A stretch of 64,000 bases of DNA from Cyanobacteria bacterium P01_H01_bin.74 (GCA_038745945.1 JBCDLA010000002.1:871-64870); one strand, 5' to 3'. Positions 6,711 through 32,811 are shown, counted from the first letter of the stretch. Program-made: numbers and translations. The notes: a model not told the origin generated them from the sequence alone.

Positions 6711-6776
6711 ACTGAAGCCTGCCTATGAGAAAAGCGTTTAAGCCAGCGGATTTCATCAAGCATCAGGAGGGCCCCT

Positions 6777-14672: not shown

Positions 14673-16046
14673 TTAGAGCTTCTGTTTGACCGTTTGTTGT
14701 TTGTCGTAGCCAGTCATTTCCACATAGGCCTGCCCTGTCACCTGCTTTGCACCCATTTTTCCCGCAACAGCGGCACTGCCCTCCCAATAAGATACCTGGG
14801 TCGTTCCTGAGGTTTTAAGTTCCTGATTCTCAAAGCTGGGGGTGACACTCACATCAATATCATGCTCAGGCACACGGATTGTCCAACCCATGGGGTACGT
14901 ACCCCCACTGGACGGGCTTGTCCATATTTTGCCGGATGGGGTGACCGTAAACTCATCCAGAGCCAGGTGTTGGCTGTGGCCATCCTCCCAAACCAAGGTT
15001 CCACTGGAATTGGGATCAACACTGCCGTCTGCGTGGCGCAACAGGTAAAGCATCAGCTCTGTGTTGTTGTTGAACTGAATGCTAAACCAGTCCCAACCGG
15101 TCTGCTTGGCAGACAGTTGGCTGCTGCCGAATTCATGATCCATCCAGGACAGGCCACTTACAGGGGAAAGCTGATTATTGATGAGCAGGGTGCCCGTCGT
15201 ATTGAGCCGTGTCAACGAGTAATAATGCGAAGCACAGCCCACACAATCCGCCTTTTGGCTCACACCTGCCCCTGGTTTGCCGTGAATCACCGGGGGCTTT
15301 TCTGAGGATAAGAGCAGGTGAATCCGATTTTTGCCGTCTGGGGTCTGGGCTTCAAGTGTCATGGTATTGTTTTTGGCATCCAACAATTCTGCCTGCCACA
15401 ACCCATTCCAAACATGGTAGTGGCTTGTGCGTGCACCTGCAATATTGACGCCTTGCCGGTTTAATGTTTCTGCATAGTAAAAGGTTTTTTCCGTTTCATC
15501 ACTGATTGCAAAATGTGTGGCGTAAACCGCATTCAATTGCCAGGCCATCGACGCTTGGGAAGGAAAAATTTGATTTAATGTGTTTTGTAAGGCATTGGAT
15601 TTTGAGACGGGCTTCTGGCCAATCCTGAAAAACGTCAGTTCGTAGCCATAGTTTTTTTGATCCGGGGTTTTCAAATGGCCAGTATAGTACCACCATTCGG
15701 TTTTAAATTGCGGGTGTGCAGCATGATCAGCTGGAAATTGATATTGATAACCTGGCAATGCCAGCTGGAAAGGAGTATCAGCCTCAGCATTGGCTTCGGT
15801 ATTGGCTGATGTCTGGGTTTTGGCAGGCTCTTTTCTCGGAGAAGCAGCTGCTTTCTCTGATGCATTGTTTTTTAGAGGGCCATGATTGCCCAATGCATTT
15901 GATACAGATGTATCGGTTGACGGGGTGTCTATTGAAATCAGCAGAAAACTGGTAATGCCCAGGCAAATCAGCAGCATCATCACTGAAGGCAGTGAAATTC
16001 GACCTTTTTCCGCCAAAACCTTAAACGTTGTGTATGCCATTTGCAT
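14673..16046 (-). CDS. AttH-like lipocalin/CrtC-fold protein (membrane-anchored, predicted secreted hydrolase-like)
   Basis: N-terminal TM anchor, then S/T/A-rich linker, then an AttH/CrtC-like domain (HPQFKTEWWYYTGHL...YELTFFRIG). Last gene of an operon with an FtsX permease and an ABC ATPase, matching the attFGH arrangement. Confidence 0.6.
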   Translation of the reverse strand: MQMAYTTFKVLAEKGRISLPSVMMLLICLGITSFLLISIDTPSTDTSVSNALGNHGPLKNNASEKAAASPRKEPAKTQTSANTEANAEADTPFQLALPGYQYQFPADHAAHPQFKTEWWYYTGHLKTPDQKNYGYELTFFRIGQKPVSKSNALQNTLNQIFPSQASMAWQLNAVYATHFAISDETEKTFYYAETLNRQGVNIAGARTSHYHVWNGLWQAELLDAKNNTMTLEAQTPDGKNRIHLLLSSEKPPVIHGKPGAGVSQKADCVGCASHYYSLTRLNTTGTLLINNQLSPVSGLSWMDHEFGSSQLSAKQTGWDWFSIQFNNNTELMLYLLRHADGSVDPNSSGTLVWEDGHSQHLALDEFTVTPSGKIWTSPSSGGTYPMGWTIRVPEHDIDVSVTPSFENQELKTSGTTQVSYWEGSAAVAGKMGAKQVTGQAYVEMTGYDKQQTVKQKL

Positions 16047-16050
16047 TGTC

Positions 16051-18777
16051 TTACTCCGATTTAATCACTTCCGGGGCCAGGGTTTTTGCCGCAAGCCGGG
16101 CAGGAATCAATCCTGAAACCAGGGCAGTCACTAAAACCAGTCCGGTCGCCTGCACCAAAAACATCACGGGCAAATCAAATCCAATGGTCCAGCCAAACGA
16201 TTGTTTATTAATCACTTTAATTAACAACTGCGACAACACCAGCCCCACCGTCAAACCCGAGACATTGCCCAATATCCCCAGCATGGCCGCAATGGAAAGC
16301 ACAATGGCCTGAATTTGTTTGGCACTTGCACCCAGGTACTTTAAAATGCCGAACTCGCGCTTTGCTTCCAGAACCAGGGCAAACAAGGCATTCATAATCG
16401 TCAGTAATGCCACAACAATGGCAATGGCATGCAGGGCGTATGTAATGGCAAAGGTTTTGTCAAAAATTCGCAGCACTTCAGTACGCAATTCTTTGTTACT
16501 GCGAATGTGAAGCAGGGCGCTTTGGTTAATCTGGTCTAAAATCCGGTTTCGCACGGCATCTGCCGTTTCATCGTTGGTTACGTAAACGGCCAGGTTGTTA
16601 ATGCGCTCATCGTTATAAAATTGGGTATACCAGAACCGGGGCATGACAATATACCCCAGATCGCTGGAATAATCGGTGTAAACCCCTTCAATGACAAAGC
16701 TTTTTTGCCCGGCCGGGGTCTGCAATACAATGGTATCGCCTTGAGTCTTGTTAAACTTGGTTGAAAAAGATTCGGTCACGGTTACTGCCGGATGGGTTTT
16801 CATTCTGGCCAGAATGGCTTTCGGAGACTCACCGCTTAAAAACTTCAGGTTGCCATAGGCTGCCAACACATCAAAGCTGCCCACCCCCAGATTGGTGGGT
16901 TGCCCGTCAAGTGTTAACGGAAACTCAAAAAACGGATCAACCGCTGCTACCCCTTTGACATTTTCAATGGCTTTAACGGTTTCCAAGCGCATGCGCCCGG
17001 TTTGCTTGCTGCCAAATTTTGAAGCCGGCTCAATCCACAGATCCGCCTTCAGGGTTTGCTCAATCCAGCTGTTTACTGTTTGCCTGAAACTGCTGATCAT
17101 AATGGCCAAACTGACCATCATGGCAATGCCCACCATTAAACTGGCCACGGCCACTGCGGTTCGCGCAAGCGACCCACGCAGCATCAGGCCCGCTTGATAG
17201 ACTTCCGTGCCCAGCCACTTTTTTAAACCTGGCAGCACCCAGTGGCTTAAACGTTGAATCATTTCAGGCAAGAGTAAGGCGGCACCAAAAATAACCAGCA
17301 CAGCTGCCAAAAATCCAAAAACAGGTAAGCCGTCAACCGCGGGCTGTGCCGCAAAAAATCCGCCCAAAACCAGTAGTAAAACCCCCAAGACTGCCAACAA
17401 AACCGTCTGGCTACTGAATTTTGATTCATACGAAAACCGCCGTGTTGCCTCAGCGGGAGACACACTGGCTGACTCATAAAGCGGCACGATGGCTCCTAAT
17501 ACTGTCATAATACACCCAAAGGCAACGGATTGAACAATGAGCCACGGGTTGATTGAAAAATGTGTCAGCAATTGCCCGGTATACAGGTTGGCCACCGTGG
17601 TTGCCACAGCTTCTGATGAAAACCGCGACAGGACAATGCCAAAGACAATGCCCAGCAAAGTACCCAAAAGGCCAAGCCCAAAAGCTTCCAGCAGAAACAG
17701 ATTAAACACCTGCACCTTGCTTAATCCAATAGCCCGCAATGTGCCTATTTCAGGGCGGCGGCGAATAATTGAAATCGACATCGTGTTGTAAATCAGAAAA
17801 ACCCCAACCAGCAGGGCAATAAAGCTCAGTGTGGTTAAATTGTACTGATACGAGCGCAGCATCTTATCCAGCTGGGCGCTACGCTGCTCAGGACGAACAG
17901 CCTCTGCCGCAATACCGGGCAGTTTATTCAGCGATTGCTGGAGTTTTTCTTTGACCCACGGCACATCATCAGGTGGAATTCGCAGATCAATCCGGTTAAG
18001 CTGACCAGGCATTGCAAAAACTTTTTGGGCCGCCCCAATATCCATCAGAACCAGATTTCCATCGTAAGCGCTGCCCAGACCGGTTGAAGACAGAATGCCA
18101 GATACTGTAAAGGCTTTAACCGTGTCATTAATCAGCAAGGAAAAAACATTGCCAACCCTTAAATTGTACGTTGCTGCTAGGCCCTCCCCAATAAAGACCG
18201 CCCCGTCTTTTAATAGGGCCGCCGGATCGTCTGATTGTTCAAGAACAATCATCCCTGAATTGTTTTGTGGGTTCTGTGAAAACAGATCCACCCCCAGAAC
18301 CTGAATGACCTCAGTCAATGCGGGCACCGTTTTGGCAAGCTGTAGCTTGTTCTGTTTGTGATTTTCGAGCGTTTTTTCTGGATTTTGATGCGGATACCAA
18401 AGTGCCGTTTGCTCAATAATAGGCAGAATGAGTGTTGAGGCCTGATAATGTCTGGTTTTTCCGGACTGGTTTTCAGCGTTGTTGACTGTATCCACAGGCA
18501 ACCGCCACAACCACCGTAGATGCGACAAGAGTGACTCTGGCAACGTGTCTCGTTGGTAGGGCTGAATGCTCAGCGTGCTTGTCCCGCCCACTTTTTCAAT
18601 GCTGTTTTTAAAATTTGAAAAGGCCATATCATTGGCCAGATTAATGGCAAGCAGAATGGCCACACCCAATGCCACCCCAAGAACGGTCAAGCTGGTCCTC
18701 AGTTTATTGTGCCACAACGCGCGAACCACAATTTTTCTGAACCCGGCTTTAAGCGGCAAAAAATAATGTTTAACCAA
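16051..18777 (-). CDS. ABC transporter permease, FtsX family with two FtsX domains (MacB/YbbP-like)
   Basis: 908 aa. Two blocks of 4 TM helices, each preceded by a large periplasmic loop. Conserved FtsX-type segments (IALLVGVFLIYNTM..., LHAIAIVVALLTIMNALF...). Confidence 0.75.
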   Translation of the reverse strand: MVKHYFLPLKAGFRKIVVRALWHNKLRTSLTVLGVALGVAILLAINLANDMAFSNFKNSIEKVGGTSTLSIQPYQRDTLPESLLSHLRWLWRLPVDTVNNAENQSGKTRHYQASTLILPIIEQTALWYPHQNPEKTLENHKQNKLQLAKTVPALTEVIQVLGVDLFSQNPQNNSGMIVLEQSDDPAALLKDGAVFIGEGLAATYNLRVGNVFSLLINDTVKAFTVSGILSSTGLGSAYDGNLVLMDIGAAQKVFAMPGQLNRIDLRIPPDDVPWVKEKLQQSLNKLPGIAAEAVRPEQRSAQLDKMLRSYQYNLTTLSFIALLVGVFLIYNTMSISIIRRRPEIGTLRAIGLSKVQVFNLFLLEAFGLGLLGTLLGIVFGIVLSRFSSEAVATTVANLYTGQLLTHFSINPWLIVQSVAFGCIMTVLGAIVPLYESASVSPAEATRRFSYESKFSSQTVLLAVLGVLLLVLGGFFAAQPAVDGLPVFGFLAAVLVIFGAALLLPEMIQRLSHWVLPGLKKWLGTEVYQAGLMLRGSLARTAVAVASLMVGIAMMVSLAIMISSFRQTVNSWIEQTLKADLWIEPASKFGSKQTGRMRLETVKAIENVKGVAAVDPFFEFPLTLDGQPTNLGVGSFDVLAAYGNLKFLSGESPKAILARMKTHPAVTVTESFSTKFNKTQGDTIVLQTPAGQKSFVIEGVYTDYSSDLGYIVMPRFWYTQFYNDERINNLAVYVTNDETADAVRNRILDQINQSALLHIRSNKELRTEVLRIFDKTFAITYALHAIAIVVALLTIMNALFALVLEAKREFGILKYLGASAKQIQAIVLSIAAMLGILGNVSGLTVGLVLSQLLIKVINKQSFGWTIGFDLPVMFLVQATGLVLVTALVSGLIPARLAAKTLAPEVIKSE

Positions 18778-18879
18778 ATCGACTGTCCTAAAAAAAATTT
18801 TTGACTCTTACGGGAAATAATGCAAAAACTGATGCGGCAAAATTATTTTGACTCAGCGTGTTTTATTACTGCGTGCAAC

Positions 18880-19572
18880 TTATGCCGCAAGAATTTGCCC
18901 GTCTTTCATACGGACAGTTCGGTTGGCAACCGCAGCAGCCTCATTGCTGTGGGTGGCCATAATGATTGTTTGTCCGTTTTGCTGGGTCAGTATTTTGAGC
19001 AGATCCAAAATACGCTCACCATTTTCAGAATCCAGATTGCCGGTGGGCTCATCGGCCAAAATAATTTGGGGCTGATGAATCAGTGCCCGGGCAATGGCAA
19101 TCCGTTGCATTTCTCCGCCTGAAAGCGCTGATGGGTAGGCGTGTTTGCGGTGTGTCATACCCACTTGCTCAATTAAGGCTTCAATCCGCTCACGCTGCGC
19201 TTTGACTGAATCTGTTAACGCACCCGATGATAGCTCCAACGGTAAAGCCACATTTTCATAAGCGGTTAAAGTGGCCATCAGGTTGAAAAACTGAAACACA
19301 AACCCCAATCGGGTTCGCCGAAGCTGGGTTAAGGCCCTGTCATCTTTTTCACCCAATGAGTCATTAAACAGCATGACCTTGCCGCTGCTGGGCCGGTCAA
19401 TGGCCCCCAGTATATTCAGCAACGTGCTTTTTCCGCAGCCGCTGGGACCCATCAATGCAATAAATTCTCCGGTTTCAATGGTTAAGTTGACCCCCTGAAG
19501 CACATTGATTTCAGATTGTGCATAGGATTTGGTCAGATCTTGTGTTTCAACCGCGATCGAAGCGTTGCTCAA
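18880..19572 (-). CDS. ABC transporter ATP-binding protein (LolD/MacB-type)
   Basis: Walker A GPSGCGKST, signature LSGGEMQRIAIARAL, Walker B ILADEPTGNLD, H-loop ATHS. Confidence 0.85.
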   Translation of the reverse strand: MSNASIAVETQDLTKSYAQSEINVLQGVNLTIETGEFIALMGPSGCGKSTLLNILGAIDRPSSGKVMLFNDSLGEKDDRALTQLRRTRLGFVFQFFNLMATLTAYENVALPLELSSGALTDSVKAQRERIEALIEQVGMTHRKHAYPSALSGGEMQRIAIARALIHQPQIILADEPTGNLDSENGERILDLLKILTQQNGQTIIMATHSNEAAAVANRTVRMKDGQILAA

Positions 19573-19687
19573 GAGGGTGCTTTCTCGTTACTACTTTTTT
19601 AATTTTTAATTTTTATAATCTTTTAATTGATTGTCTGTGTTTATTTAAACCAAATTTCTTTAAACCAGCATTTTATTTTTTATTAAA

Positions 19688-19716
19688 GTCAGCTTGCCTC
19701 AATGGCTGACTTTTTT
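19688..19716 (+). terminator. orphan terminator-like hairpin in ORF-free region
   Basis: GTCAGC-ttgcctcaatg-GCTGAC followed by TTTTTT on the + strand. No + strand protein gene lies upstream. Confidence 0.3.
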
Positions 19717-20415
19717 AGTATATCAAAAAATTAAAGAGGCTCGGCAGCGGTTAAGAGTTTTTCTTTTTTCATTCTTTAACCAGGTTCTGTTGTGGAATTT
19801 ATTTAAGCCATTGAAGAGTAGCAGCAAAATGAAAGAATGCCCGAAATCGAAAAAGCAATCTTTTTAAACCATGAGAAAATTCACTGATAGTGCTTAGCAT
19901 AGAAACGAAAAGATAATGACTTAGAGTTAGATGAGATGTGGCATTTTGTGCAAAAAAAGCACAAAAGTGGTGGGTTTGGCTTGTCTAAAATAGAGAAAAA
20001 ACACTGTATTACTGTCCAACTAGCACTTAGAATTGTTTCTACAGGAAAGAAACTGTAGAAACAGCTTAAACTTTTTGAAATAGAATAAGTTATGTACGGA
20101 CTATTTTTCTACATATCCAAGCATTGTTAATCATCCAAATTATGTCATTACCAAGGCAAAACTTGGGCATTGGAAAGCTAAAATAACAGAAATACACACT
20201 ATTTAGTAAGATTCAGAAGGAAAGCATTGCATAAGGTACAAACTGCGCTGCCACTATTTTTTACACTCGATTGGCAAAAATAGCTATATTAAATGAGCAA
20301 CGTCATTTTTTGTGTCATTGCCGATGAATTTACACAACCATTGCACAGAATCAGTGACACTAAAATGAGTCTTTAGTTAGAGAGTCCTAAAAAAGACCAA
20401 TTCTGGTTTAAATAT

Positions 20416-21219
20416 TTAAAATATTTTGGCATAGTAATTCAAGTGTTCAATCACCATCTGCATAAAGATGGTTAATGTAATCCACATAGTCGCCAAACCT
20501 ATCGATGGCTTTAATGCAAAACTCAGCTGAAACACCGGGATCTGCTGGGCTGTCCGGTTGACCACACCCAGCATCAAATCAACGGCCATGGTGACTACAA
20601 TAGCCGGAGAAACCATTTGAACCCCGATGGACAGAACATGGCTGGACAAGTGGACCAAATACGACAGATCAATCGCTGTTCTGAAATCGTGTGTCACACT
20701 GTACAACGGAAATACTTCTAAACTGTGGTGCAATGCATTAATCAGCCAATACATGCCACCCAGGTACAGAAAGACACCAATGGCAATAAAACTAAATAAG
20801 GTCTCCAACAGCATGGTCTGAGACCCCTGAGAGGGATCCATAATCATGGCCGAAGACAATCCAATCTGATTGTTTAATACGTTGCCAGCTGCATTAATGA
20901 CTTGCAGAATCATGTTGGCAATAAAGCCAATAAAGGCACCGACCACCACATTTAATAAGATTTGAAGCATGTACACCGGATAAGCATCCATATTGTTGAC
21001 CACGCCTGCCGGATGGGGGGACACGGTAAACGAAAGCATTATAGTCAGGTAAACCGCCAGACTTATTTTTATGAGGATTGGAATATTTTTTCGATTAAAC
21101 AACGGGGCTGTTCGCATAAATGCCAATATTCTGAAAAAAAGCAAAAGTAGACCGTCTAAATACGGCCCAAATTTTTCGTACAGGCCCATATACGATTGCA
21201 GCGCCAGTGAGAAGTCCAT
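20416..21219 (-). CDS. fliR: flagellar/type III export apparatus protein FliR (SctT family)
   Basis: 267-aa polytopic membrane protein with FliR/SctT-like layout. Last gene of the Q-O-P-Q-R block. Confidence 0.75.
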   Translation of the reverse strand: MDFSLALQSYMGLYEKFGPYLDGLLLLFFRILAFMRTAPLFNRKNIPILIKISLAVYLTIMLSFTVSPHPAGVVNNMDAYPVYMLQILLNVVVGAFIGFIANMILQVINAAGNVLNNQIGLSSAMIMDPSQGSQTMLLETLFSFIAIGVFLYLGGMYWLINALHHSLEVFPLYSVTHDFRTAIDLSYLVHLSSHVLSIGVQMVSPAIVVTMAVDLMLGVVNRTAQQIPVFQLSFALKPSIGLATMWITLTIFMQMVIEHLNYYAKIF

Positions 21220-21284
21220 TGTCGTATTGTGTTCTCTTGGTATTATCTCGGGATTTTCTTCTATTTAACAGGACATTTGGTTGT

Positions 21285-21818
21285 TTACGGTCTGGCTGAA
21301 TTCTCGGCTGAAGATTTGTCGAGTATCAATTGTTCAGCATGTGAGGCCGGATTTGCAGGAGTTTGACCTGGCTTAAAAACCCTTGTGCTTTTTGATGCAG
21401 AATCCACCTGTGATTGCCCACTCCAGCCTTTCATCAAAGCATTCAGCTTGTCTGAGTTGCCATCGGCGCTGTTAACTTGTGCCTCAAAAAAAGCACGGGC
21501 CCGGCTGTAGCCATCCGATTGACTGCTGCTTGGCTTCAAAACAAAAATGCCATCTTGCGGCAACTGATTAAAGGCAATAAAGGCCGCATCCCGAAAAAAA
21601 TTGGTCATTAACTCTATCATAAACCCCCCCCCCAAAAGCAGGACCAAGAAAACAGCCACTATTTTTGGTGCCGCAGAAATGGTTTGTTCCTGGACTTGAG
21701 TAACCGCCTGCAAAATGCCAACCACCAAACCAACACCTGCAGCAACCAGGGTGGTTGATAAAGAGAGCATCAGAACCAGTAGGATGCCGCGCTTTAAAAA
21801 TTCTAACAAGATTTCCAT
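21285..21818 (-). CDS. fliQ: export apparatus protein FliQ (SctS family) with ~90-aa hydrophilic C-terminal extension
   Basis: First 86 aa align with FliQ/SctS (…LVVGILQAVTQVQEQTISAAPKIVAVFLVLLL…). The ORF then continues in frame for ~91 polar residues (…SSSQSDGYSRARAFFEAQVNSADGNSDKLN…). Normal FliQ is ~89 aa. Confidence 0.7.
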   Translation of the reverse strand: MEILLEFLKRGILLVLMLSLSTTLVAAGVGLVVGILQAVTQVQEQTISAAPKIVAVFLVLLLGGGFMIELMTNFFRDAAFIAFNQLPQDGIFVLKPSSSQSDGYSRARAFFEAQVNSADGNSDKLNALMKGWSGQSQVDSASKSTRVFKPGQTPANPASHAEQLILDKSSAENSARP

Positions 21819-21842
21819 ACAGTAAAACTTCCGGAAAAAATT

Positions 21843-22475
21843 TTAATTAAAGCTCTGAACAAGGCCATTAACAACAAGCCCCCAACCATCAACTGCCACA
21901 AAAATTAATATTTTAAAGGGCAATGAAATAATGGTAGGCGACAGCATCATCATCCCCAAAGCAAGTAGGGTATTGGCTACAACCAGGTCAATAACAATGA
22001 AGGGAATAAAAATAATGAAACCAATTTCAAAAGCTGTTCGTAATTCGCTAATCATAAAAGCTGGAGCCACTTCCCAAATAGCCAAGTCATTGGGTGATTC
22101 AGGCGGTTTTTTTCGTGAAATCTGCAAGAAATAGGCAATGTCCTTTTCGCGGGTTTGTCGCATCATAAACTTTTTTAAAGGCTCTGATCCTCGTTCCATA
22201 ATCTGAACAACATCGCCTTTTTGAGCCATCACTGGGGCAATATTGGCATACATCTCCCCAAATACTGGTGCCATCGTATACATCGTTAATACCAAGGACA
22301 TGCCCACCATGACTATGCCTGGCGGAACCTGTTGGGTTCCAAGAGCAGTTTTCAAGATAGATAGCACAATGGTATAACGCAAAAAACTGGTCATGCTGGC
22401 CACCACAAAAGGAATGAGTGACAGGCTGGACATTAGGATAATTAGCTGTAAGGCCGGATCAAGGTTGCTGAACAT
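21843..22475 (-). CDS. fliP: export apparatus protein FliP (SctR family), no cleavable signal peptide
   Basis: Strong FliP/SctR identity: ASMTSFLRYTIVLSILKTALGTQQVPP, FMMRQTRE, ELRTAFEIGFIIFIPFIVIDLVVANTLLALGMMMLSP, PFKILIFVAVDGW. At 210 aa with a short N-terminus it resembles SctR, but the adjacent gene is fliO-like. Confidence 0.85.
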   Translation of the reverse strand: MFSNLDPALQLIILMSSLSLIPFVVASMTSFLRYTIVLSILKTALGTQQVPPGIVMVGMSLVLTMYTMAPVFGEMYANIAPVMAQKGDVVQIMERGSEPLKKFMMRQTREKDIAYFLQISRKKPPESPNDLAIWEVAPAFMISELRTAFEIGFIIFIPFIVIDLVVANTLLALGMMMLSPTIISLPFKILIFVAVDGWGLVVNGLVQSFN

Positions 22476-22610
22476 TTATAAAATCCAATTAATTATGAAA
22501 CCCAATTTATGCGGATAAAATTTTTCTGGAGTACACTTAAAGATGTATTGCCAATGAGAGCCACTAAAAACAGAATAAAGTCAAGACAAACTATTCAGCA
22601 ATAATAACCA

Positions 22611-23132
22611 TTACTTGCCTGTTCGACTGGCTATCAGCCAACGAATACTGCTCAAGAACCGCTCTTGAAACCCATTGCCACCAACCATAGTGCCAGCCCT
22701 CTGGTCACGGAAGAGCCTACGTACAGGATGCTGTTGGTAGTTTTCTTCTTGAGCATGCGGTTGATACCAGGGCTGACTGGCTGTGAGCGCGTCTCCAGTT
22801 TCAGCATCTGGGGTTTTAGACAAGCGTTCCAATGCAGAAACAGGCTCCAACCGAGACAGCAGTGAAACGGTATTATTACTGTTGGAAACCAGAAACCGTT
22901 CATCACCGTTGCGAATCACATAAACAGACTGCACGGGAGACAGGGCCAATGAAGACTCAATGCCCAGTTCAGGATGATCTGTGTCTTGTGAAAGACCGGA
23001 TGCCCCTGCAGAAGCATTGCTGCCCCGTTTGCCGCTCACCAGCCAATAGGTTAAGTAAAGCACACCCAGTGCAATAAAAGTGTACAGTATAAAAGAGCCC
23101 AAGTAGTATTCAATACTGTTTGCTTCAATCAT
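22611..23132 (-). CDS. fliO: FliO-like small single-pass membrane protein
   Basis: N-terminal TM (LGSFILYTFIALGVLYLTYWLV), then a KRG...ASAGASGL... segment, then SPVQSVYVIRNGDERFLVSNSNNTVSLLSRL. This parallels E. coli FliO (…ISASASLGARERVVVVDVEDARLVLGVTAGQINLLHKL). Position between the fliN-like gene and fliP matches flagellar operons. Confidence 0.5.
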   Translation of the reverse strand: MIEANSIEYYLGSFILYTFIALGVLYLTYWLVSGKRGSNASAGASGLSQDTDHPELGIESSLALSPVQSVYVIRNGDERFLVSNSNNTVSLLSRLEPVSALERLSKTPDAETGDALTASQPWYQPHAQEENYQQHPVRRLFRDQRAGTMVGGNGFQERFLSSIRWLIASRTGK

Positions 23133-23177
23133 AATGTCGCTTTCCTTTTTGGGCTGTTTTGTCGCAGCAAGTCTTTA

Positions 23178-24626
23178 TTAATCCCAGTCTTCATCATCAT
23201 CGTCAAAAGCATCATCCAGATCACTTAAGGGGTCTGTTGCTTCCGAGAGTCCCGCAACATCAGAGTCTGGTTGCTCAAGTGGGTCATTAACGCGTGTTTG
23301 ATTAACCGAATTGTGTGCCTCAACGGTTGTCAAAGAAAGGCTGGTTTCAGTGTCGGACTCTGTCATTTTTACAGCCCGAACGCGCACGCCAAACTTGTCG
23401 CCAATAATTAGAAGCTCTCCTTCGGCAATCGGTTTGCCATCCACTTGCAATGTCACCAGATTGTTAACAACATCGCCAAGTTCAACCACAATGCCTTCTG
23501 AGATTTGTTTTAAATGCTTTAACGGCAGTTTAACGGGGGGCAGTTCTGCAATTAAGTCAACATGCAGATTGTCCCAAAGGCCTGAACTCTTCTGTCCTTG
23601 AGAATCTTCTGAATCGGCATTGCCCAGACTGACCATAGTTAAAAAGTCCTTTTCATCAGGGGGGATTAAGCTTTTTTTGCGGGCAGGATCCCACTGGATT
23701 AAAAACGCACTGCCCAAGCTGGTTTTTTTGGAAAACTGGGCGGGACTCCCAGGCCTGCATTCTGAAAAAAACAAAGTATCGCACTGGCTCTCATCCAGTA
23801 CAATCATATCACCCGGTTCAATTAAGTGCAGCTCACCCAGCTTGACCTTGGTTTTTCCCAAGACAAGTTTCGACAACAGGGTCATCTGGAAAAAGACAGC
23901 ATCTGAAAAGTCTTGCTCTGTGTTGGGCCTGCTTTTTTCGGCGGTAAAATCAATGGCCTCAATTGCCACTTTGACCAGCAACTGACCCAGGTCTGCATTG
24001 ACTCCTTCATTGCTGGCATTGCGCTGCGGGCTTGAAATTACCCAGATTAAGTCAATAAAGCCATCAGCATTGTCTGGCAACTGATTGTAAATAATTTGGG
24101 TTGCTGCCTGATGTTGTGCCAGTTTTGTACCTTCTGAAATAAGTGCTGAGTCCTTGAAAGCCAAAGACAGCTGCTTTGAAAAGGCTTGGAATAAGCTGTT
24201 TTCCAAAGGCGTCACCTGATCTAATGAAAAGCCGTTGCCATGGTCTTCTTCGGGCGATTGCCCCAGTGACGCATCAAGAAGCTGACTGCACAAGGGCTCA
24301 GAAAACCGCCACTCGACGACGGTCAATGCGTCCAATGAAACCAGTGGCTGTAAATGGGCCATATCAATGGATGACACATGAAATCCGCCTGCCTGTTGGC
24401 AGAAATAATGGGGTTGTTCACTGGCACCGAGAAACTTCACCGAAAATCCCTCAATGCCCCAAAAGTTTTGCAAAGACATTGCGATGTCTTCTGAAAATCG
24501 GGTGGCCAGATTCAGAATGGGTTGCCAGGCAGATGCAAAGGGGACAACCGTGATTGTCTCAAGCAAACGGGGGCTCACCCCGGTTGAATCTGAAACCAAT
24601 GCATTCATATGGTGCTGATTACCCAA
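23178..24626 (-). CDS. type III/flagellar C-ring protein of the SctQ/FliN(FliY) family with two SpoA domains and an acidic C-terminal tail
   Basis: Two SpoA-like (FliN fold) segments: …TLLSKLVLGKTKVKLGELHLIEPGDMIVLDES… and …LPLKHLKQISEGIVVELGDVVNNLVTLQVDGKPIAEGELLIIGDKFGVRVRAV…. The poorly conserved N-terminal 250 aa is typical of SctQ. No FliM-type LSQEEIDALL/GGXG motifs. Ends in DLDDAFDDDDEDWD. Confidence 0.65.
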   Translation of the reverse strand: MGNQHHMNALVSDSTGVSPRLLETITVVPFASAWQPILNLATRFSEDIAMSLQNFWGIEGFSVKFLGASEQPHYFCQQAGGFHVSSIDMAHLQPLVSLDALTVVEWRFSEPLCSQLLDASLGQSPEEDHGNGFSLDQVTPLENSLFQAFSKQLSLAFKDSALISEGTKLAQHQAATQIIYNQLPDNADGFIDLIWVISSPQRNASNEGVNADLGQLLVKVAIEAIDFTAEKSRPNTEQDFSDAVFFQMTLLSKLVLGKTKVKLGELHLIEPGDMIVLDESQCDTLFFSECRPGSPAQFSKKTSLGSAFLIQWDPARKKSLIPPDEKDFLTMVSLGNADSEDSQGQKSSGLWDNLHVDLIAELPPVKLPLKHLKQISEGIVVELGDVVNNLVTLQVDGKPIAEGELLIIGDKFGVRVRAVKMTESDTETSLSLTTVEAHNSVNQTRVNDPLEQPDSDVAGLSEATDPLSDLDDAFDDDDEDWD

Positions 24627-24847
24627 TTGGCTGGCGGATGGTTTTATTACTTATTATCAGTTTAAAGGGTAACAGGGCACCTGTGTTAATGAAAGCAATA
24701 GAGATACAGCATTTACAGGAGTTTAAAAAAAGTTTTAAGTTTTGATAAAACCGGACCAGAACACGCGTTGTGCTTTGGCAAAAAAAACGGGCTTGCATTG
24801 TCTGGCAAACCCATTTTAAACTGTTCCATTTTGTAGCTAAAAATCTT

Positions 24848-26320
24848 TTAGACAGGGGCCAACTGCTTCAGTGTGGCATTGGCCTCTTCAATATTACCCT
24901 CAAGCCCCATGGTTACGGTCTTGGCTTTGGTGGCTGCTTCTGCAGAGGTTCGTGCCATTTCTTGTGCCGCCTGATTGAGCTCACCAATGTTTCGGGTAAT
25001 TTCAGCAATACCCTGCAACGAGTCTTCAACCCGACTGGCAACATTACTGGATAGCTCAGTGGCTTCCGTCACATTTGAGGCAACATTCTTGGTGGATTGC
25101 GCCGTTTGGGTAATGTTGCCAGAAATCTCATTGGAAACAGCAGTCTGCTCTTCAACGGCGCTGGCAATAGTGCTGTTAATGTCGTTAATTTCGCCAATAA
25201 CGGTTGCAATGGTGTTGATGGCAGAAATAGACGTATCGGTGTTTTTCTGCATGCCTTCCACCTGAACCCGAATGGTCTCTGTGGCTTGCGCCGATTGCTT
25301 TGCCAGCTCTTTGACCTCATTGGCAACAACGGCAAAGCCTTTTCCTGCATCACCGGCACTGGCAGCCTCAATGGTGGCGTTTAATGCAAGCAGATTGGTC
25401 TGGGCGGCAATCTCTTTAATAATATCCACAATTTTACCAATTTCTTTAGCAGACAAAGCCAGGTTCTCAACGGTATTTTTCGTTTCATCCGCTTTTTCTG
25501 TGGCACTTTCTGCAACAGCAGATGCTTTTGCAGCATTTTCAGAGACTTCTTTTAATGAAGAAAGCATTTCCTGGGTGGATTTGGATACAGTCTGCATCGT
25601 CTGGTTAATGTCTTCAACCGCCTGGGTAACCACGGTCATTGAATCGCTCATTTTGTTGGTCGATTGTCCAACATTACCCACGTTTTCTTCAATGGTATTA
25701 CTGGCCCGCAGCACTTCCTGAATGTTGGCAGTCGACTCTTCAACCGCACTGGCCACGGTAGAAACATTGCTATTCAAATCAGAAACGTTGTCTAACACAT
25801 CGTTTAAAGAGACCACCAGTTTTTTAGAACTGGTTTGTTTCACTGTATCGTTGTAAATGGTAATGGCAATGTCAATATCAAGGAAAGCAGCCCTCAACAA
25901 GCTTTGGAATGCCAGTGTTTTTTTGGCAAGGGGTACTTTTTTCTCTTCAAATGCTTTCATCATGGCTGCTACCATTTCTGCAATGGCAAAGCTATAGCCA
26001 CCCAGATAAAATTGCGGCTCAATGGCGCGTTCTTCGTGGGTACGTCCTATTTTTTCAATCCGCTGCATATAGCTTTCATCAAACACCCCTGAAAATAAGC
26101 CTTCCCAATGGCGCTGCTGAGCTTTTTTGGCATATTCTGCGGAACTGGCTGTTTTAAACTTAGCCTGCAGTTGTGGCCATTGAAAGATATGCTCGTAAAA
26201 CTTGTCTAAAACCGGGCCAATATGATCTTTAATGGCCGGCATCACCACGTCTTTCAAGGACTCTGATGTCTCTTGATTGATTTTTAAAAACCGAAGCCGT
26301 TCTTCACGCGAGGTGCTCAT
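24848..26320 (-). CDS. soluble methyl-accepting chemotaxis protein with N-terminal globin-coupled sensor (HemAT-like)
   Basis: N-terminal protoglobin/sensor-globin domain (…KDHIGPVLDKFYEHIFQWPQLQAKF…EPQFYLGGYSFAIAEMVAAM…). C-terminal MCP signalling domain with the highly conserved tip (…TETIRVQVEGMQKNTDTSISAINTIATVIGEINDINSTIASAVEEQTAVSNEISGNITQ…). No TM segments. Confidence 0.75.
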   Translation of the reverse strand: MSTSREERLRFLKINQETSESLKDVVMPAIKDHIGPVLDKFYEHIFQWPQLQAKFKTASSAEYAKKAQQRHWEGLFSGVFDESYMQRIEKIGRTHEERAIEPQFYLGGYSFAIAEMVAAMMKAFEEKKVPLAKKTLAFQSLLRAAFLDIDIAITIYNDTVKQTSSKKLVVSLNDVLDNVSDLNSNVSTVASAVEESTANIQEVLRASNTIEENVGNVGQSTNKMSDSMTVVTQAVEDINQTMQTVSKSTQEMLSSLKEVSENAAKASAVAESATEKADETKNTVENLALSAKEIGKIVDIIKEIAAQTNLLALNATIEAASAGDAGKGFAVVANEVKELAKQSAQATETIRVQVEGMQKNTDTSISAINTIATVIGEINDINSTIASAVEEQTAVSNEISGNITQTAQSTKNVASNVTEATELSSNVASRVEDSLQGIAEITRNIGELNQAAQEMARTSAEAATKAKTVTMGLEGNIEEANATLKQLAPV

Positions 26321-27234: not shown

Positions 27235-30200
27235 GTGGCACCGATGACATCAGAAGACAATCCGAATACCCTCTCTCATTTTCTCTTTAAAACGCTGGTA
27301 CTAACGGGGATGCGCCCCCTGCGCGACCAGGCATTTAACAGCACCCGCAACGCCAAAATTTCAAAAACTGAAAATGAGGCCCTCGATGCTGGATCTGTGG
27401 GCTACGAACAGGAAATTATTGCGGGCAGCCCCCAGTGGGAAAAGCTCTTGAATATGCCGACACCAGCCCTGACCCGGGAAGAGGAAGCCTTTATTGACGG
27501 CCCTGTTGAAACCTTGTGTGCCATGCTGGATGACTGGGAAATTCGAACACAAACCCACGATCTGCCCGCTGAGGTCTGGCAGTTTATGAAAGACGCTGGC
27601 TTTTTTGCCCTGATTATCCCCAAGGCCTATGGCGGACTGGCTTTTTCTGCACGGGCCCACTCCGATATTATTTTAAAACTGGCCAGTCGCAGTGCAACAG
27701 CATGTGTCACGGCCATGGTGCCCAATTCTCTGGGGCCTGCCGAATTGCTGGCAGTTTATGGGACTCCGGAGCAAAAAAGCTATTATTTGCCCCGGCTGGC
27801 CCGTGGTGAAGAAATTCCGGCCTTTGGCCTGACAGAAACCAATGCCGGCTCAGATGCCTCCAGCATGACATCCGCTGGTACAGTTTGCAAAAAAGACGGC
27901 GTGCTGGGCATTCTACTGAACTGGGACAAGCGTTATATCACACTCAGCCCCATTGCCACCTTAATTGGCATTGCCTTCAAGCTTTCTGATCCAGACCACC
28001 TGCTGGGCGATGAAGACGATCTGGGTATCACGCTGGCCCTCATTCCAGCCAGCAGCCCGGGGGTTGAAATTGGCCGGCGGCACAACCCGCTGGGGGTTCC
28101 GTTCCAAAATGGGCCGACTTCCGGGAAGGACGTGTGGGTTCCTATTAATGCCATTATCGGCGGTAAAGAGTATGCTGGCCAGGGCTGGCGCATGCTGATG
28201 GAATGCCTTTCCGTAGGCCGGTGCATTTCATTGCCTGCCTTATCCGTTGGATCTGCCAAATTGGTGACGCAAATGGTCACCGCCTACAGCCGGGTACGTC
28301 AGCAGTTTAAACTGGCCATTAGTCAATTTGAAGGCATTGAAGAAATGATAGCCCGCATTGCCGGGCACACCTATTTAATGGAAGCAGCCCGGGTGGCCAC
28401 GTTGCAAATGCTGGATCGCGGGGAGCACCCCACGATTTTATCTGCGGTAATGAAGTACCACACCACCGAAATGGCCCGTACCATTCTCAATGATGGCATG
28501 GATGTGCTGGGCGGCAAGGCCATCTGCGAAGGGCCTGACAACTTAATGGCGGCACTCTACCATGCCATCCCTATTGGCATTACCGTAGAAGGGGCCAATA
28601 TATTAACGCGCAACTTAATTATCTTTGGGCAAGGTTCGGTGCGCTCTCATCCCTATCTGTTGAAAGAACTGCGGGCAGCCAAGCTGGAAGACCGCAAGGC
28701 TGCAAAAGCGGCCTTTACAAAGCTGATGGCATTCCACGTGGCAGACAGCACCCGAAACGGGTTTAACAGCGTTTTGTTCGGCCTGACAGACGGCCACCTG
28801 AGCAATACCCCAGCCTGCTCCGCTACTGAGTATAAGTATTTTAGGCAGATTAACCGCTTGTGTGCGGCCTACGCCACGATGGCTGACATCACACTGATGC
28901 TTCTGGGAGACGGGGTAAAGCGAAAAGAGCGGATTTCTGCCCTGCTGGGGGATACAATGAGTTACCTGTACCTGTCCAGTTGCGCGCTTCGGCATTTCCG
29001 GATTGAAGGCAGCCGTGAAGAAGACAAGCCACTGATGCAATGGTCTTGTGAGTATCTGCTGTTTAAGGCCGAAGACAGTCTGGCCACACTGATTCATAAC
29101 TTTCCGCTGCCCAGTGCCTTGCAGTGGGCCAATCCGTTTCTCTACCTGCTGGTCTTTCCAAAAGGCCGGCGATTTAACCAGGCCAACCACCGGCTGGACA
29201 AAGCGGTGGTAAACGCTGTGATGAAAAACCCTGAAACCCGTGCCCGCTTGACCAGCGGGGTGTATCAGCCCCAAAACACCGATGAACCCTTGGCCGTCAT
29301 GGAAGCAGCATTCAGTGCTGTGGTTCACGCGGACACCACATTAAAAACATTGCGCCAGCAGAAAAAAGCGGGCAACTTGGCGGGTGATTCCCCGGAAGCC
29401 TGGGTGAATGACGCACTGGAAAAAGGCTTAATTACTGAAGAGCAAAAGCAACAGCTGGCCACTGCCGAGCAGTTGCGCCAGCGGGTCATTCGGGTGGATG
29501 ACTTTAATTTGAATTTGGATCCGGTTGAAAAAAAAACGGCACTGGCCAACGGTAAAACCCTGAGAAATCAGTATCCGCTGGGCACGCCCTGGCAGATAAA
29601 TATTCCGCGGCAAACACTTGTGGATGTACTCAATAAAAGCGTGGCCCACTTTGGCAAACTCAATGCCATTGACTCAATGGGCAAAAAGTACACCTACGAG
29701 GAACTGGGCGATCTGGTCCACAAGGTGGCCGCCGGGCTACAACACCTAGGCGTTCGAAAAGGCGACAAAGTGGCGCTGTTTATGCCCAACACGCCTTACT
29801 ACACCATCTTTTTCTTTGCCATTGTGAAAGCCGGGGCTGTGGTGGTCAATGTATGCCCGGTTCTCACGACACCGGAAGTAAAAGAACAGCTGGAAGACAG
29901 TGAGACCAAGGTTCTTGTAACACTCAATTTAAAAAACACCTTTGAAAAGGCAGATGCCCTTGGCAAGGCCAAAGTGGTGGAGCATGTGGTGGTTTGCCCC
30001 ATGAGCGAAGTGTTGCCATTCTTAAAAGCCCAGGCCTTCCGTTTTTTGCGCAAAGACAGTGTTGTGAACCTGGATAAATTATCGACAGATGAAGCGGAAA
30101 ACAAGCACCTGGTAACTTATAAAGCAGTGGTCAACAGCAGAACCCCGTATTGTCCGCAAAAAATCTCACCAGATGATTTGGCAGCCCTCCAGTATACCGG

Positions 30201-31371
30201 GGGAACAACCGGATCGCCCAAAGGGGCAATGCTGACCCATTATAATCTGCTGGCCAACGTCTATCAGATTGAACATTATTTTTTAGAGAGTGCCAACAAA
30301 CCCAAAACCGATGCCCTCCTGGCACAGGGAAACGAACGCGTTTTGGGCAATATTCCGTTTTTTCATATTTTTGGGTTAACGGTTGCCATGTTGTGCACGG
30401 TTAAAATGGGCAACGAGTGCATTATTCTGCCCGATCCGCGCAACACCAAAGACACCTTAAAAGCCATCCACGAGAAAAAGCCCACGCTTTTTCCTGCGGT
30501 GCCGCGCCTGCTGCAATCACTGAAGGAAAATCCCAAAGTACATCAATACGATCTAAGCTCACTAACTACCGTTATTTCAGGTGGCGCCGCACTGCCTGAA
30601 CAGCTTAAGCAAGCCTTTGAGGCACTGGCCAAGACCCCAGGCCTCATCAAAGAAGGCTACGGCCTGACGGAAGCATCACCCGTCATTGCGTGCAACCCGG
30701 CTTACGGCAACAACAAGGTCAATTCGGTGGGGCTGCCCTTGCCCAAAACCCAGATTAAAATTGTGGATGCTGAAAATCCGAACAAAACGTTGCAGTTGGG
30801 TGAAGTGGGTGAAATCTGCATTCAAGGGCCGCAGGTGATGCTGGGCTACTACAAGCAATCCGCTGAAACAGCCGAAGTGATTATTGACGGCTGGCTGCAT
30901 ACCGGTGATTTGGGGTATATGGACGACACCTATTACATCCACATTACTGACCGCAAAAAGCGCCTGATTCTGGTCAATGGCCTGAATGTCTACCCGACGC
31001 AAGTGGAAGCAGCCATACACCGACACCCGGCAGTCGAGGAATGCCTGGTCATCAGCGTGCCGGATCCCCGTTCTGGTGAAGCCGCGAAAGCCTTTGTTCG
31101 GCTAAAAACAGGCCTGGGGGCTTACCCATCTGCAGAAGATATGATAAGGTTTTTAGCAAAGGATCTCAGTCGGATTGAAATTCCGAAACACCTTGTGTTT
31201 GTGACAGAGGAGTTGCCAAAAACCAGTGTTGGAAAGCCCGACTGGAAAACCCTGCAGGACAGAGAGCGAGGCTTGCCCCTTCAAGTGGGTGAGCCCGATG
31301 ACGCGGACACTGTCCCGTTACTAGAACATCCAGAAGAAGATACTGCATATCCAAAACAAGAACAGGCATAA
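27235..31371 (+). CDS. natural fusion: acyl-CoA dehydrogenase (FadE-like, N-terminal ~780 aa) + long-chain acyl-CoA synthetase (FadD-like, C-terminal ~590 aa)
   Basis: N-terminal part is collinear with E. coli FadE from ...SKTENEALDAGS... through ...VIRVDDFNLNLDPVEKK (…LARGEEIPAFGLTETNAGSDASS…, …GITVEGANILTRNLIIFGQG…). The same frame then continues into a FadD-like AMP-binding enzyme: VALFMPNTPYY, LQYTGGTTGSPKGAMLTHYNLLAN, GYGLTEASPV, GWLHTGDLGYMDDTYYIHITDRKKRLILVNGLNVYP, KTSVGKPDWKTL. A single 1378-aa ORF (GTG start; alternative ATG at 27244). Confidence 0.8.
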   Translation: MAPMTSEDNPNTLSHFLFKTLVLTGMRPLRDQAFNSTRNAKISKTENEALDAGSVGYEQEIIAGSPQWEKLLNMPTPALTREEEAFIDGPVETLCAMLDDWEIRTQTHDLPAEVWQFMKDAGFFALIIPKAYGGLAFSARAHSDIILKLASRSATACVTAMVPNSLGPAELLAVYGTPEQKSYYLPRLARGEEIPAFGLTETNAGSDASSMTSAGTVCKKDGVLGILLNWDKRYITLSPIATLIGIAFKLSDPDHLLGDEDDLGITLALIPASSPGVEIGRRHNPLGVPFQNGPTSGKDVWVPINAIIGGKEYAGQGWRMLMECLSVGRCISLPALSVGSAKLVTQMVTAYSRVRQQFKLAISQFEGIEEMIARIAGHTYLMEAARVATLQMLDRGEHPTILSAVMKYHTTEMARTILNDGMDVLGGKAICEGPDNLMAALYHAIPIGITVEGANILTRNLIIFGQGSVRSHPYLLKELRAAKLEDRKAAKAAFTKLMAFHVADSTRNGFNSVLFGLTDGHLSNTPACSATEYKYFRQINRLCAAYATMADITLMLLGDGVKRKERISALLGDTMSYLYLSSCALRHFRIEGSREEDKPLMQWSCEYLLFKAEDSLATLIHNFPLPSALQWANPFLYLLVFPKGRRFNQANHRLDKAVVNAVMKNPETRARLTSGVYQPQNTDEPLAVMEAAFSAVVHADTTLKTLRQQKKAGNLAGDSPEAWVNDALEKGLITEEQKQQLATAEQLRQRVIRVDDFNLNLDPVEKKTALANGKTLRNQYPLGTPWQINIPRQTLVDVLNKSVAHFGKLNAIDSMGKKYTYEELGDLVHKVAAGLQHLGVRKGDKVALFMPNTPYYTIFFFAIVKAGAVVVNVCPVLTTPEVKEQLEDSETKVLVTLNLKNTFEKADALGKAKVVEHVVVCPMSEVLPFLKAQAFRFLRKDSVVNLDKLSTDEAENKHLVTYKAVVNSRTPYCPQKISPDDLAALQYTGGTTGSPKGAMLTHYNLLANVYQIEHYFLESANKPKTDALLAQGNERVLGNIPFFHIFGLTVAMLCTVKMGNECIILPDPRNTKDTLKAIHEKKPTLFPAVPRLLQSLKENPKVHQYDLSSLTTVISGGAALPEQLKQAFEALAKTPGLIKEGYGLTEASPVIACNPAYGNNKVNSVGLPLPKTQIKIVDAENPNKTLQLGEVGEICIQGPQVMLGYYKQSAETAEVIIDGWLHTGDLGYMDDTYYIHITDRKKRLILVNGLNVYPTQVEAAIHRHPAVEECLVISVPDPRSGEAAKAFVRLKTGLGAYPSAEDMIRFLAKDLSRIEIPKHLVFVTEELPKTSVGKPDWKTLQDRERGLPLQVGEPDDADTVPLLEHPEEDTAYPKQEQA

Positions 31372-31374
31372 GAC

Positions 31375-32565: not shown

Positions 32566-32811
32566 GACGTGGTTTTCATGTGTGAACAACCAGATTGTTA
32601 ATAGCCAAGTTTTAAGAGCAAAGTTTTACCTATAAAGCTTTCTCAGTGTTTTTTCCGTTTTGGATGAGTCCGGGCAGAAGACGGTCTCTGCCACTATTTT
32701 AAATTCATTTAACCCCAATTTTAAGCCCCTCCTTATTTTTAAGCTCATACTTATTTCAAGTTCCTCCTTATTTTAAATTTCCCTTCCCTATAACCCAGAA
32801 GTCAAAGCGTC

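Follow-up and report, generated by a model that had tools for sequence, protein, structure and literature searches.

How should the genes for a flagellar-type export gate be understood when they stand apart from other flagellar genes and end without flhB? This question is raised by a run of minus-strand genes (20416-26320) in a stretch of 64,000 nucleotides from Cyanobacteria bacterium P01_H01_bin.74 (GCA_038745945.1, JBCDLA010000002.1:871-64870), hereafter the window. The source is a metagenome-assembled genome (MAG), the nearest relatives of which are Vampirovibrionales. A first-pass annotation, made from the sequence alone, had described the run as a chemoreceptor gene followed by five export-apparatus genes. 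It had proposed either a reduced or repurposed export apparatus or a scattered flagellar regulon in a reduced genome.

Domains were assigned from Pfam matches to the window proteins, with NCBIfam equivalog models as a second test. The six minus-strand open reading frames (ORFs) were all present at the positions reported earlier, and the Pfam matches confirmed the identification of each gene. Besides the chemoreceptor gene, these are a SctQ/FliY-like cytoplasmic-ring protein of 482 aa starting from TTG (23178-24626; two FliMN_C (SpoA) stretches), hereafter the Q-like protein; a FliO-like bitopic membrane protein of 173 aa (22611-23132; Pfam FliO, residues 36-111); FliP, the export-gate pore subunit, of 210 aa (21843-22475; Pfam FliP, 238 bits); FliQ of 177 aa with a C-terminal extension of about 90 aa (21285-21818; Bac_export_3, 76 bits, residues 5-75 only); and FliR of 267 aa, the final gene of the block (20416-21219; Bac_export_1, 178 bits). 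The intergenic gaps in the block are 24-135 bp, all on one strand. Such short gaps would be compatible with one transcript that begins upstream of 24626 and runs slightly beyond 20416. In the NCBI annotation the Q-like protein starts six codons later, at 24608, resulting in 476 aa. This later start, the double-length FliQ, a hairpin after the chemoreceptor gene and a motAB pair in the window had not been mentioned in the first-pass annotation.

Genome contigs were scanned by FliP alignment, one genome per species, and 31 loci were obtained. These loci, named Vampirovibrionales, Vampirovibrio or Melainabacteria and including V. chlorellavorus NCIMB 11383, showed FliP identities of 66-83%. In nearly all of them, genes for a Q-like protein (407-619 aa), FliO, FliP (about 213 aa), FliQ (about 170 aa) and FliR were found in the same order. 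Most Vampirovibrionales loci also share their flanks, with heptosyltransferase and S20 genes upstream and ribonucleotide reductase and pyruvate:ferredoxin oxidoreductase genes downstream; the window differs in this respect. When 1.84 billion representatives were searched with a profile of the Q-like protein, 155 clusters were retrieved at E<=1e-30. Some of them form a subgroup of 380-420 aa, in which one protein is named Gastranaerophilales by NCBI. About 85 further loci, from metagenomes (80 loci) and Gastranaerophilales, showed the order Q-like protein-FliO-FliP-FliQ (157-189 aa)-(small unknown gene)-FliR, surrounded by housekeeping genes. The five-gene block is thus kept in register in about 120 loci of Vampirovibrionales and Gastranaerophilales, with housekeeping genes around every one.

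The FliP of the window is 62% identical to that of Gastranaerophilales and 48-49% identical to proteobacterial FliP. Across the class, the identity is 62-83% for FliP and only 21-35% for the Q-like protein. All ORFs of the block are intact. The class-wide gene order and the FliP identities indicate that the operon is shared by the class and inherited vertically, rather than being peculiar to the window. We consider it likely that this operon is the form in which the class Vampirovibrionia (Melainabacteria) typically encodes the inner core of a flagellar-type type III secretion system (T3SS).

Some details of these loci are worth recording. In the Gastranaerophilales blocks, an extra gene of 149 aa with no Pfam match lies between fliQ and fliR (L045, 12908-13357; L048, 3155-3604), and one lineage (L043) has a block without any fliR. 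In 18-19 Vampirovibrionales loci (L001-L035), the block is preceded by two conserved genes of about 500 and 389 aa with no Pfam match and by a TPR gene, all of which are absent from the window. The genes of about 500 and 389 aa were considered as members of the block and rejected, since genes on the opposite strand intervene. Two FliP loci in one MAG (L030 and L034), considered as paralogues, turned out to be strain copies of one locus with 92% identity. When the nearest FliP sequences were searched for a non-orthologous outgroup, all 120 matches listed were orthologues with 71-83% identity.

The Q-like protein consists of an N-domain (about residues 31-230), SpoA1 of the SepQ_C type and SpoA2 of the FliN type (residues 353-417), followed by an acidic tail with Trp as its last residue. 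The C-terminal SpoA domain matches FliN (PDB 8umd), and YscQ-C (PDB 3uep) and the SPOA2 of SpaO (PDB 4yx1) were also among the structure matches. In the AlphaFold (AF2) model, the predicted local distance difference test (pLDDT) score was 70-86 for residues 31-230 and 55.8 on average for the whole model; as modelled, the N-domain is a FliM-middle/CheC fold. The FliM-like fold followed by SpoA1 and SpoA2 corresponds to the architecture of SctQ. The two-SpoA, SctQ-like architecture proposed earlier was therefore correct, with one SpoA domain of the SepQ_C type and one of the FliN type. A single gene thus holds a FliM-fold domain and two SpoA domains, in place of separate fliM and fliN. Pfam FliM gave no match to the 482-aa protein, and the score with TIGR02551 was 69.6, under the cutoff of 100.8. 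In the alignment of Q-like proteins, which are 380-620 aa in length across the class, the acidic tail ending in Trp is conserved. Neither a conserved CheY-binding N-terminal peptide (EIDALL-type) nor a GGXG motif is visible in this alignment.

A second product may be made from the same gene. An internal ATG (Met331; 23634-23636, minus strand) is preceded by a Shine-Dalgarno-like AAGGA motif at 23647-23651. The column of Met331 is Met in 24 of 25 homologues, although it lies in a variable linker preceding SpoA2. An AGGA/GGAG/GAGG motif at -17 to -5 was found at the internal ATG of 22 of the 25 homologues, compared with 12 of 253 other in-frame ATGs. Taken together, the conserved Met and the motif point to a predicted internal translation start, which would give a FliN-like product of about 152 aa consisting of SpoA2 and the acidic tail. 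YscQ, SsaQ and SpaO are known to have such an internal start, from which a product with SpoA2 alone is made.

Which machine does this operon serve? In related genomes, the partners of the block are found elsewhere. At one locus (L093), a divergent cluster of flgF-flgG-flgB-flgC-SLT transglycosylase-fliE-fliF-unknown gene (316 aa)-fliH-flhA is found at a distance of about 1 kb from the block. This proximity ties the block to rod, FliE, FliF, FliH and FlhA partners. Two genes of this cluster deserve mention in their own right. One is the SLT-type lytic transglycosylase gene between flgC and fliE. The other is the 316-aa gene (2630-3580, minus strand) between fliF and fliH, which occupies the position of fliG in flagella and of sctK in injectisomes; it showed no Pfam or PDB sequence match.

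Published gene tables are informative on this point. According to Soo et al. (2015, PMC4451040), V. chlorellavorus is motile by means of a single polar flagellum, and its set of flagellar genes is complete. Table S3 of that study lists the block as spoA-fliO-fliP-fliQ-fliR (2600256631-627), and the TPR gene four genes upstream of it fits our locus L019. The same table lists a separate, contiguous fliP-fliQ-fliR-flhB-flhA (2600255743-747), separate fliM and fliN, fliE-F-G-H-I, and L/P-ring and hook-associated genes, as well as a second group composed of fliH-flhA, an orphan flhB, flgF-G-B-C-fliE-fliF, flgE with fliJ, and an orphan motBA pair (PMC4451040). The two export-gate sets of V. chlorellavorus are known from this published annotation, not from retrieved sequences. 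Four gut Gastranaerophilales judged to be non-flagellated keep only FlgB/C/F/G, FliE, FlhA, FlhB, FliI, FliJ, FliP and FliR (Soo et al. 2014); hook, filament, L/P-ring, stator and switch genes are absent from them. About 75% of Gastranaerophilales genomes keep such a subset, which is "postulated to be involved in extracellular secretion" (2026 preprint). Table S3 and the Gastranaerophilales gene sets together suggest that the block belongs to a conserved core that is able to exist without a filament and that stands beside a canonical set in Vampirovibrio. These facts also bear on the "scattered flagellar regulon in a reduced genome". The partners are indeed dispersed in relatives, with flhB, flhA, fliF and rod genes elsewhere in Table S3. 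No evidence was found for a reduced genome; the window is rich in ordinary biosynthetic and beta-oxidation genes. The "reduced or repurposed export apparatus" is a live possibility.

The block could nevertheless be the sole flagellar export-gate operon of this organism, building a swimming flagellum as part of an ordinary scattered regulon, with no second apparatus. The lineage is flagellated, FliO is present and FliP is of the flagellar type, and the window contains motAB and a chemoreceptor. Moreover, only one fliP-fliQ-x-fliR set, with a layout matching the block, is listed for the flagellated melainabacterium ACD20 (Di Rienzi et al.). On the other hand, V. chlorellavorus has a separate fliP-fliQ-fliR-flhB-flhA together with fliM, fliN and fliE-F-G-H-I (PMC4451040), and the non-flagellated gut Gastranaerophilales keep FliP, FliR, FlhA, FlhB, FliI and rod genes. 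The lack of a conserved CheY-binding N-terminal peptide in the Q-like protein is also unfavorable to this explanation. We give it a substantial chance, although one clearly below even. That the core serves a paralogous, filament-less basal body kept alongside the flagellum comes close to an even chance but does not quite reach it.

In a more specific proposal, the block would encode the gate and sorting platform of a separate type III apparatus, derived from the flagellum, inherited vertically and common to Vampirovibrionia. Such an apparatus would coexist with a canonical set in Vampirovibrionales and occur alone in the non-motile gut Gastranaerophilales. It would represent a second exaptation, independent of that of the injectisome, with a role in secretion or another envelope function. 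The traits that speak for it are rod genes without hook-filament genes, the SctQ-like platform protein with its two predicted products and the signal-less FliP. We regard this proposal as tentative and, in its full form, rather unlikely.

The stator genes do not help in this matter. The motA-motB pair forms a separate locus in the window (5937-7988, plus strand; motA 5937-6710 with MotA_N and MotA_ExbB, motB 6777-7988 with MotB_plug and OmpA), 12 kb from the export block. It is the orthologue of the orphan motBA pair of V. chlorellavorus. The context of motAB was examined as a clue to the apparatus that it drives and proved uninformative, the Vampirovibrionales orthologues being an orphan pair located next to a TPR gene and the nuo operon. 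Directly upstream of motA is a gene for a protein with TPR and caspase (Peptidase_C14) domains (3803-5443, minus strand); in relatives, TPR flanks the motB side.

The flagellar or injectisome nature of the block was further analyzed on the basis of its four membrane proteins. The 173-aa protein scored 29 bits with Pfam FliO, above the gathering score of 22, in support of the earlier argument that a FliO-like gene speaks for flagellar ancestry; its score with TIGR03500 was 29.2, below the cutoff of 55.25. A FliO gene, in some cases a weak match, is located at the same position in relatives. FliO is specific to flagella and absent from injectisomes. The FliP of the window starts at a conserved DPALQL segment, and its length (210 aa here, 210-223 aa in nearly all class members) differs from that of proteobacterial flagellar FliP (255-288 aa, with a leader of 45-75 aa). 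FliP therefore lacks a signal peptide, as had been noticed before. Such a peptide is typical of proteobacterial flagella rather than strictly defining. With the NCBIfam models, FliP scored 233.4 with flagellar TIGR01103, above the cutoff of 217.45, and 207.7 with injectisome TIGR01102, just under the cutoff of 208.6; it also passed the cutoff of the EscR/YscR/HrcR subfamily model NF009438. The scores of FliQ were 71.6 with the flagellar model (cutoff 88.9, not reached) and 61.4 with the injectisome model, and those of FliR were 161.1 with TIGR01400 (cutoff 168.6, not reached) and 125.3 with sctT. Each of FliP, FliQ and FliR thus scored higher on the flagellar model than on the non-flagellar one. 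Against PDB sequences, FliP gave 158-195 bits with flagellar FliP chains and 134-149 bits with SpaP, FliQ gave 44.7 bits with flagellar chains and 42.7 bits with SpaQ, and FliR gave 64.9 bits with both FliR and SpaR. The 177 aa of FliQ are twice the canonical 89, and FliQ is 157-189 aa across the class. Its extension contains a class-wide (I/L)AFN..P....VLPP motif after the second transmembrane segment.

The earlier proposal would have been contradicted if the 173-aa protein had no similarity to FliO and the set clustered with injectisome homologues. Such a picture did not emerge, as similarity to FliO was found and FliP scored better on flagellar models and structures. The presence of FliO, the fliN-O-P-Q-R order and the linkage at L093 favor flagellar ancestry. 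The system is flagellar by descent, divergent, and with some SctQ- and SctR-like traits. That the block is part of a horizontally acquired, non-flagellar injectisome (SctQRST) is accordingly very unlikely. The SctQ-like architecture with a SepQ_C domain and a probable internal start, the absence of a FliP signal peptide and the FliP score above the NF009438 cutoff would agree with an injectisome. However, a FliO gene is located in the block, FliP is closer to flagellar models and structures, and no sctU, sctV, sctN, sctC or sctJ is found nearby in the window. Indeed, no injectisome cluster (sctU after sctT, sctN, sctV, sctJ, the secretin gene sctC or needle genes) was found in the window or in the approximately 120 related loci. 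The cluster linked to the block at L093 encodes flagellar rod proteins, FliE and FliF, the last at full length and including the M-ring C-terminal domain, and the inheritance looks vertical, as identities decrease with taxonomic distance.

A decaying relic of a flagellar system under loss is an equally poor explanation, and we judge it highly improbable. The partial flagellar sets of many Melainabacteria have been taken by authors as loss of function, and the block is isolated among housekeeping genes. Nevertheless, all five ORFs are undisrupted in the window as well as in about 120 loci that represent at least two orders, FliP keeps an identity of 62-83% while the neighbors diverge, and the lineage-specific long FliQ and the putative internal start are conserved.

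The absence of flhB after fliR was the apparent oddity of this locus. The premise that flhB normally follows fliR was mistaken: the fliLMNOPQR operon of E. coli K-12 stops at fliR and is followed by rcsA, and four Burkholderiales clusters running from fliF to fliR also terminate at fliR. Among the loci retrieved for comparison, only those of Syntrophales and Steroidobacteraceae run on into flhB-flhA-flhF-flhG. Proteobacterial FliF to FliM and FlhA, FlhB, FlhF and FlhG gave no BLASTP or tblastn matches to the window or to any of the Vampirovibrionales loci, and such partner genes are therefore not present within 10 kb at the Vampirovibrionales loci. Beyond fliR, an AT-rich non-coding spacer (19573-20415; 843 bp, 32% GC) with longest ORFs of 63 and 57 aa precedes a MacB-type exporter, in agreement with the ORF-poor gap and ABC exporter described earlier. 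In the spacer, tblastn at E<=10 over 19500-20500 detected neither a pseudogene remnant of FlhB (two Pfam-confirmed FlhB queries) nor a match to Pfam-confirmed FlhA or to FliF to FliM, and no Rfam family was matched in 19573-20415. The unusually long spacer might suggest that flhB once followed fliR and was recently deleted, or that it is absent from the sequence because of faulty assembly. This idea is extremely improbable, since no FlhB-like remnant was detected at this threshold, flhB follows fliR in none of the approximately 120 independent assemblies, and the spacer is a plausible site for the promoter of the ABC operon beyond it.

The absence of flhB and the isolation of the block are normal for the class, and the operon appears to be complete as it stands. 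As part of the reading preferred here, we hold with good confidence that its partner genes are elsewhere and that flhB was not lost. Several smaller features of this region were also observed. A perfect 10-bp inverted repeat, GTTTCTACAG(8 nt)CTGTAGAAAC, is located at about 20035-20062 in the spacer, and a weaker hairpin (-10.6 kcal/mol, z -2.0) directly follows the fliR stop. In the neighboring region (14673-19572, minus strand), a CrtC-like double-lipocalin protein is encoded immediately downstream of a 908-aa MacB/FtsX-type permease and an ABC ATPase.

The chemoreceptor gene was analyzed separately. It encodes a globin-coupled (HemAT-like) soluble protein (24848-26320, minus strand; Pfam Protoglobin and MCPsignal). 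No homologue of this methyl-accepting chemotaxis protein was found within 10 kb of the block in the approximately 120 other loci, and the adjacency is seen in this genome only. Between its stop codon and the start of the Q-like gene lies a hairpin (24817-24780, minus strand; 13-bp stem and U8, -19.1 kcal/mol), about 30 nt past the former and about 150 nt before the block. This hairpin was missed by the automatic terminator scan and was found by eye and folding; judging from its sequence, it is a putative transcription terminator. The intervening hairpin and the lack of a chemoreceptor gene at the other loci suggest that the pairing is local and that co-transcription is unlikely. The chemoreceptor gene is therefore probably a separately transcribed neighbor outside the conserved block, and the significance attached earlier to its pairing with a C-ring gene was not supported. 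V. chlorellavorus has a single globin-coupled sensor, interpreted as an aerotaxis receptor (PMC4451040).

On the reading that the block is a complete class-wide operon, the following assembly can be proposed by analogy with Salmonella. FliO would act as a chaperone in the assembly of the FliP pentamer; FliO has been described as an assembly chaperone of FliP (PMC5542435). FliR and FliQ would then join FliP to form a FliP5Q4R1 export gate within the MS ring, and FlhB and FlhA, encoded elsewhere, would join the gate. The 482-aa protein, together with its short product, may form a cytoplasmic ring or sorting platform to which FliH/FliI dock. The full-length protein and the FliN-like C-terminal piece of about 150 aa would probably stand in for FliM and FliN, in the same way as SctQ and SctQ-C in injectisomes. 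FlhB, FlhA, FliH/I/J, FliE/F and the rod proteins would be encoded at other loci, as in relatives.

Some points weigh against this reading. FliQ and FliR are under the flagellar equivalog cutoffs of NCBIfam and tie with injectisome homologues in the PDB comparison. The AF2 model of the Q-like protein is modest overall, with the mean pLDDT of 55.8, and the internal start was deduced from sequence. The gate stoichiometry and the role of FliO were transferred from Salmonella. The presence of flhB, flhA and fliI in this MAG is presumed from relatives, the 64-kb window containing motAB alone.

The block resembles the fliLMNOPQR operon of E. coli and Salmonella in that a C-ring SpoA gene, fliO, fliP, fliQ and fliR follow one another in the same order, collinear with fliM-N-O-P-Q-R of E. 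coli, the operon ends at fliR and flhB is at another locus. The identities to E. coli are 45% for FliP, 41% for FliQ and 26% for FliR. It differs in that one gene for a FliM-like domain, SpoA1 and SpoA2 replaces separate fliM and fliN. In addition, FliP has no signal peptide, FliQ is doubled, fliL is lacking, and the block stands outside a larger flagellar region. In common with the SctQ-SctR-SctS-SctT of injectisomes (Yersinia YscQRST, Salmonella SpaOPQR) are the N-domain and two SpoA domains of the Q protein and a likely internal start; SctR is also devoid of a signal peptide. In contrast to injectisomes, the Q and R homologues are separated by a FliO gene, sctU does not follow, and ATPase, secretin and needle genes are not found nearby. 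Moreover, FliP is nearer to flagellar FliP, and the partners at L093 are flagellar rod, FliE and FliF genes. Compared with FliY of Thermotoga and Bacillus, which has a CheC-like and a FliN domain, the Q-like protein has an additional SpoA1 and shows no conserved CheY-binding N-terminal peptide.

Two other systems are comparable at the level of gene sets. The aphid symbiont Buchnera has filament-less basal bodies, for which export and basal-body genes are kept and which are read as a protein exporter. The subsets kept by non-flagellated Gastranaerophilales are comparable to those of Buchnera. In contrast to Buchnera, the organism studied here probably also swims, as it has motAB and a chemoreceptor and V. 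chlorellavorus is motile, and the core would coexist with a full flagellar set. The two paralogous gate sets of V. chlorellavorus also resemble the dual flagella of Vibrio parahaemolyticus (polar and lateral) and Rhodobacter sphaeroides (fla1 and fla2). The second set of V. chlorellavorus, however, is scattered in small pieces, and no flagellin, cap, junction or L/P-ring genes are listed for it.

An isolated gate without flhB is the normal layout for the class, by which the oddity of this locus is mostly explained. The genes of the block already bear flagellar annotations; the novelty lies in a variant architecture shared by the class and, possibly, in a second, filament-less apparatus derived from the flagellum. 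The non-photosynthetic cyanobacteria have a strongly conserved flagellar-type export core with injectisome-like traits, namely a FliM/FliN-like fusion protein that probably has an internal start, a leaderless FliP and a FliQ extended by a conserved cytoplasmic segment. Judging from published gene tables, this core appears to survive the loss of the flagellum proper, besides sitting next to the canonical set in Vampirovibrio. If this is true, it would provide a natural experiment on the conversion of flagellar export machines, the same transition that produced injectisomes, and would give a function to the "partial flagellar gene sets" of the abundant human-gut Gastranaerophilales.

Finally, some genes elsewhere in the window are worth noting. 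A beta-oxidation operon (27235-35565, plus strand) contains an unusual dehydrogenase-ligase fusion of 1378 aa, in which a FadE-type acyl-CoA dehydrogenase (ACDH_C) is fused to an AMP-binding acyl-CoA synthetase; genes for a thiolase and a 917-aa 3-hydroxyacyl-CoA dehydrogenase/enoyl-CoA hydratase follow the fusion. On the minus strand are an ORF of 1668 aa with no Pfam match at E<=0.01 (55055-60061), a 628-aa GGDEF diguanylate cyclase with a long N-terminal region to which no domain was assigned (35684-37570), and a 465-aa protein in which a dual-specificity phosphatase domain is located at the C-terminus (44152-45549).

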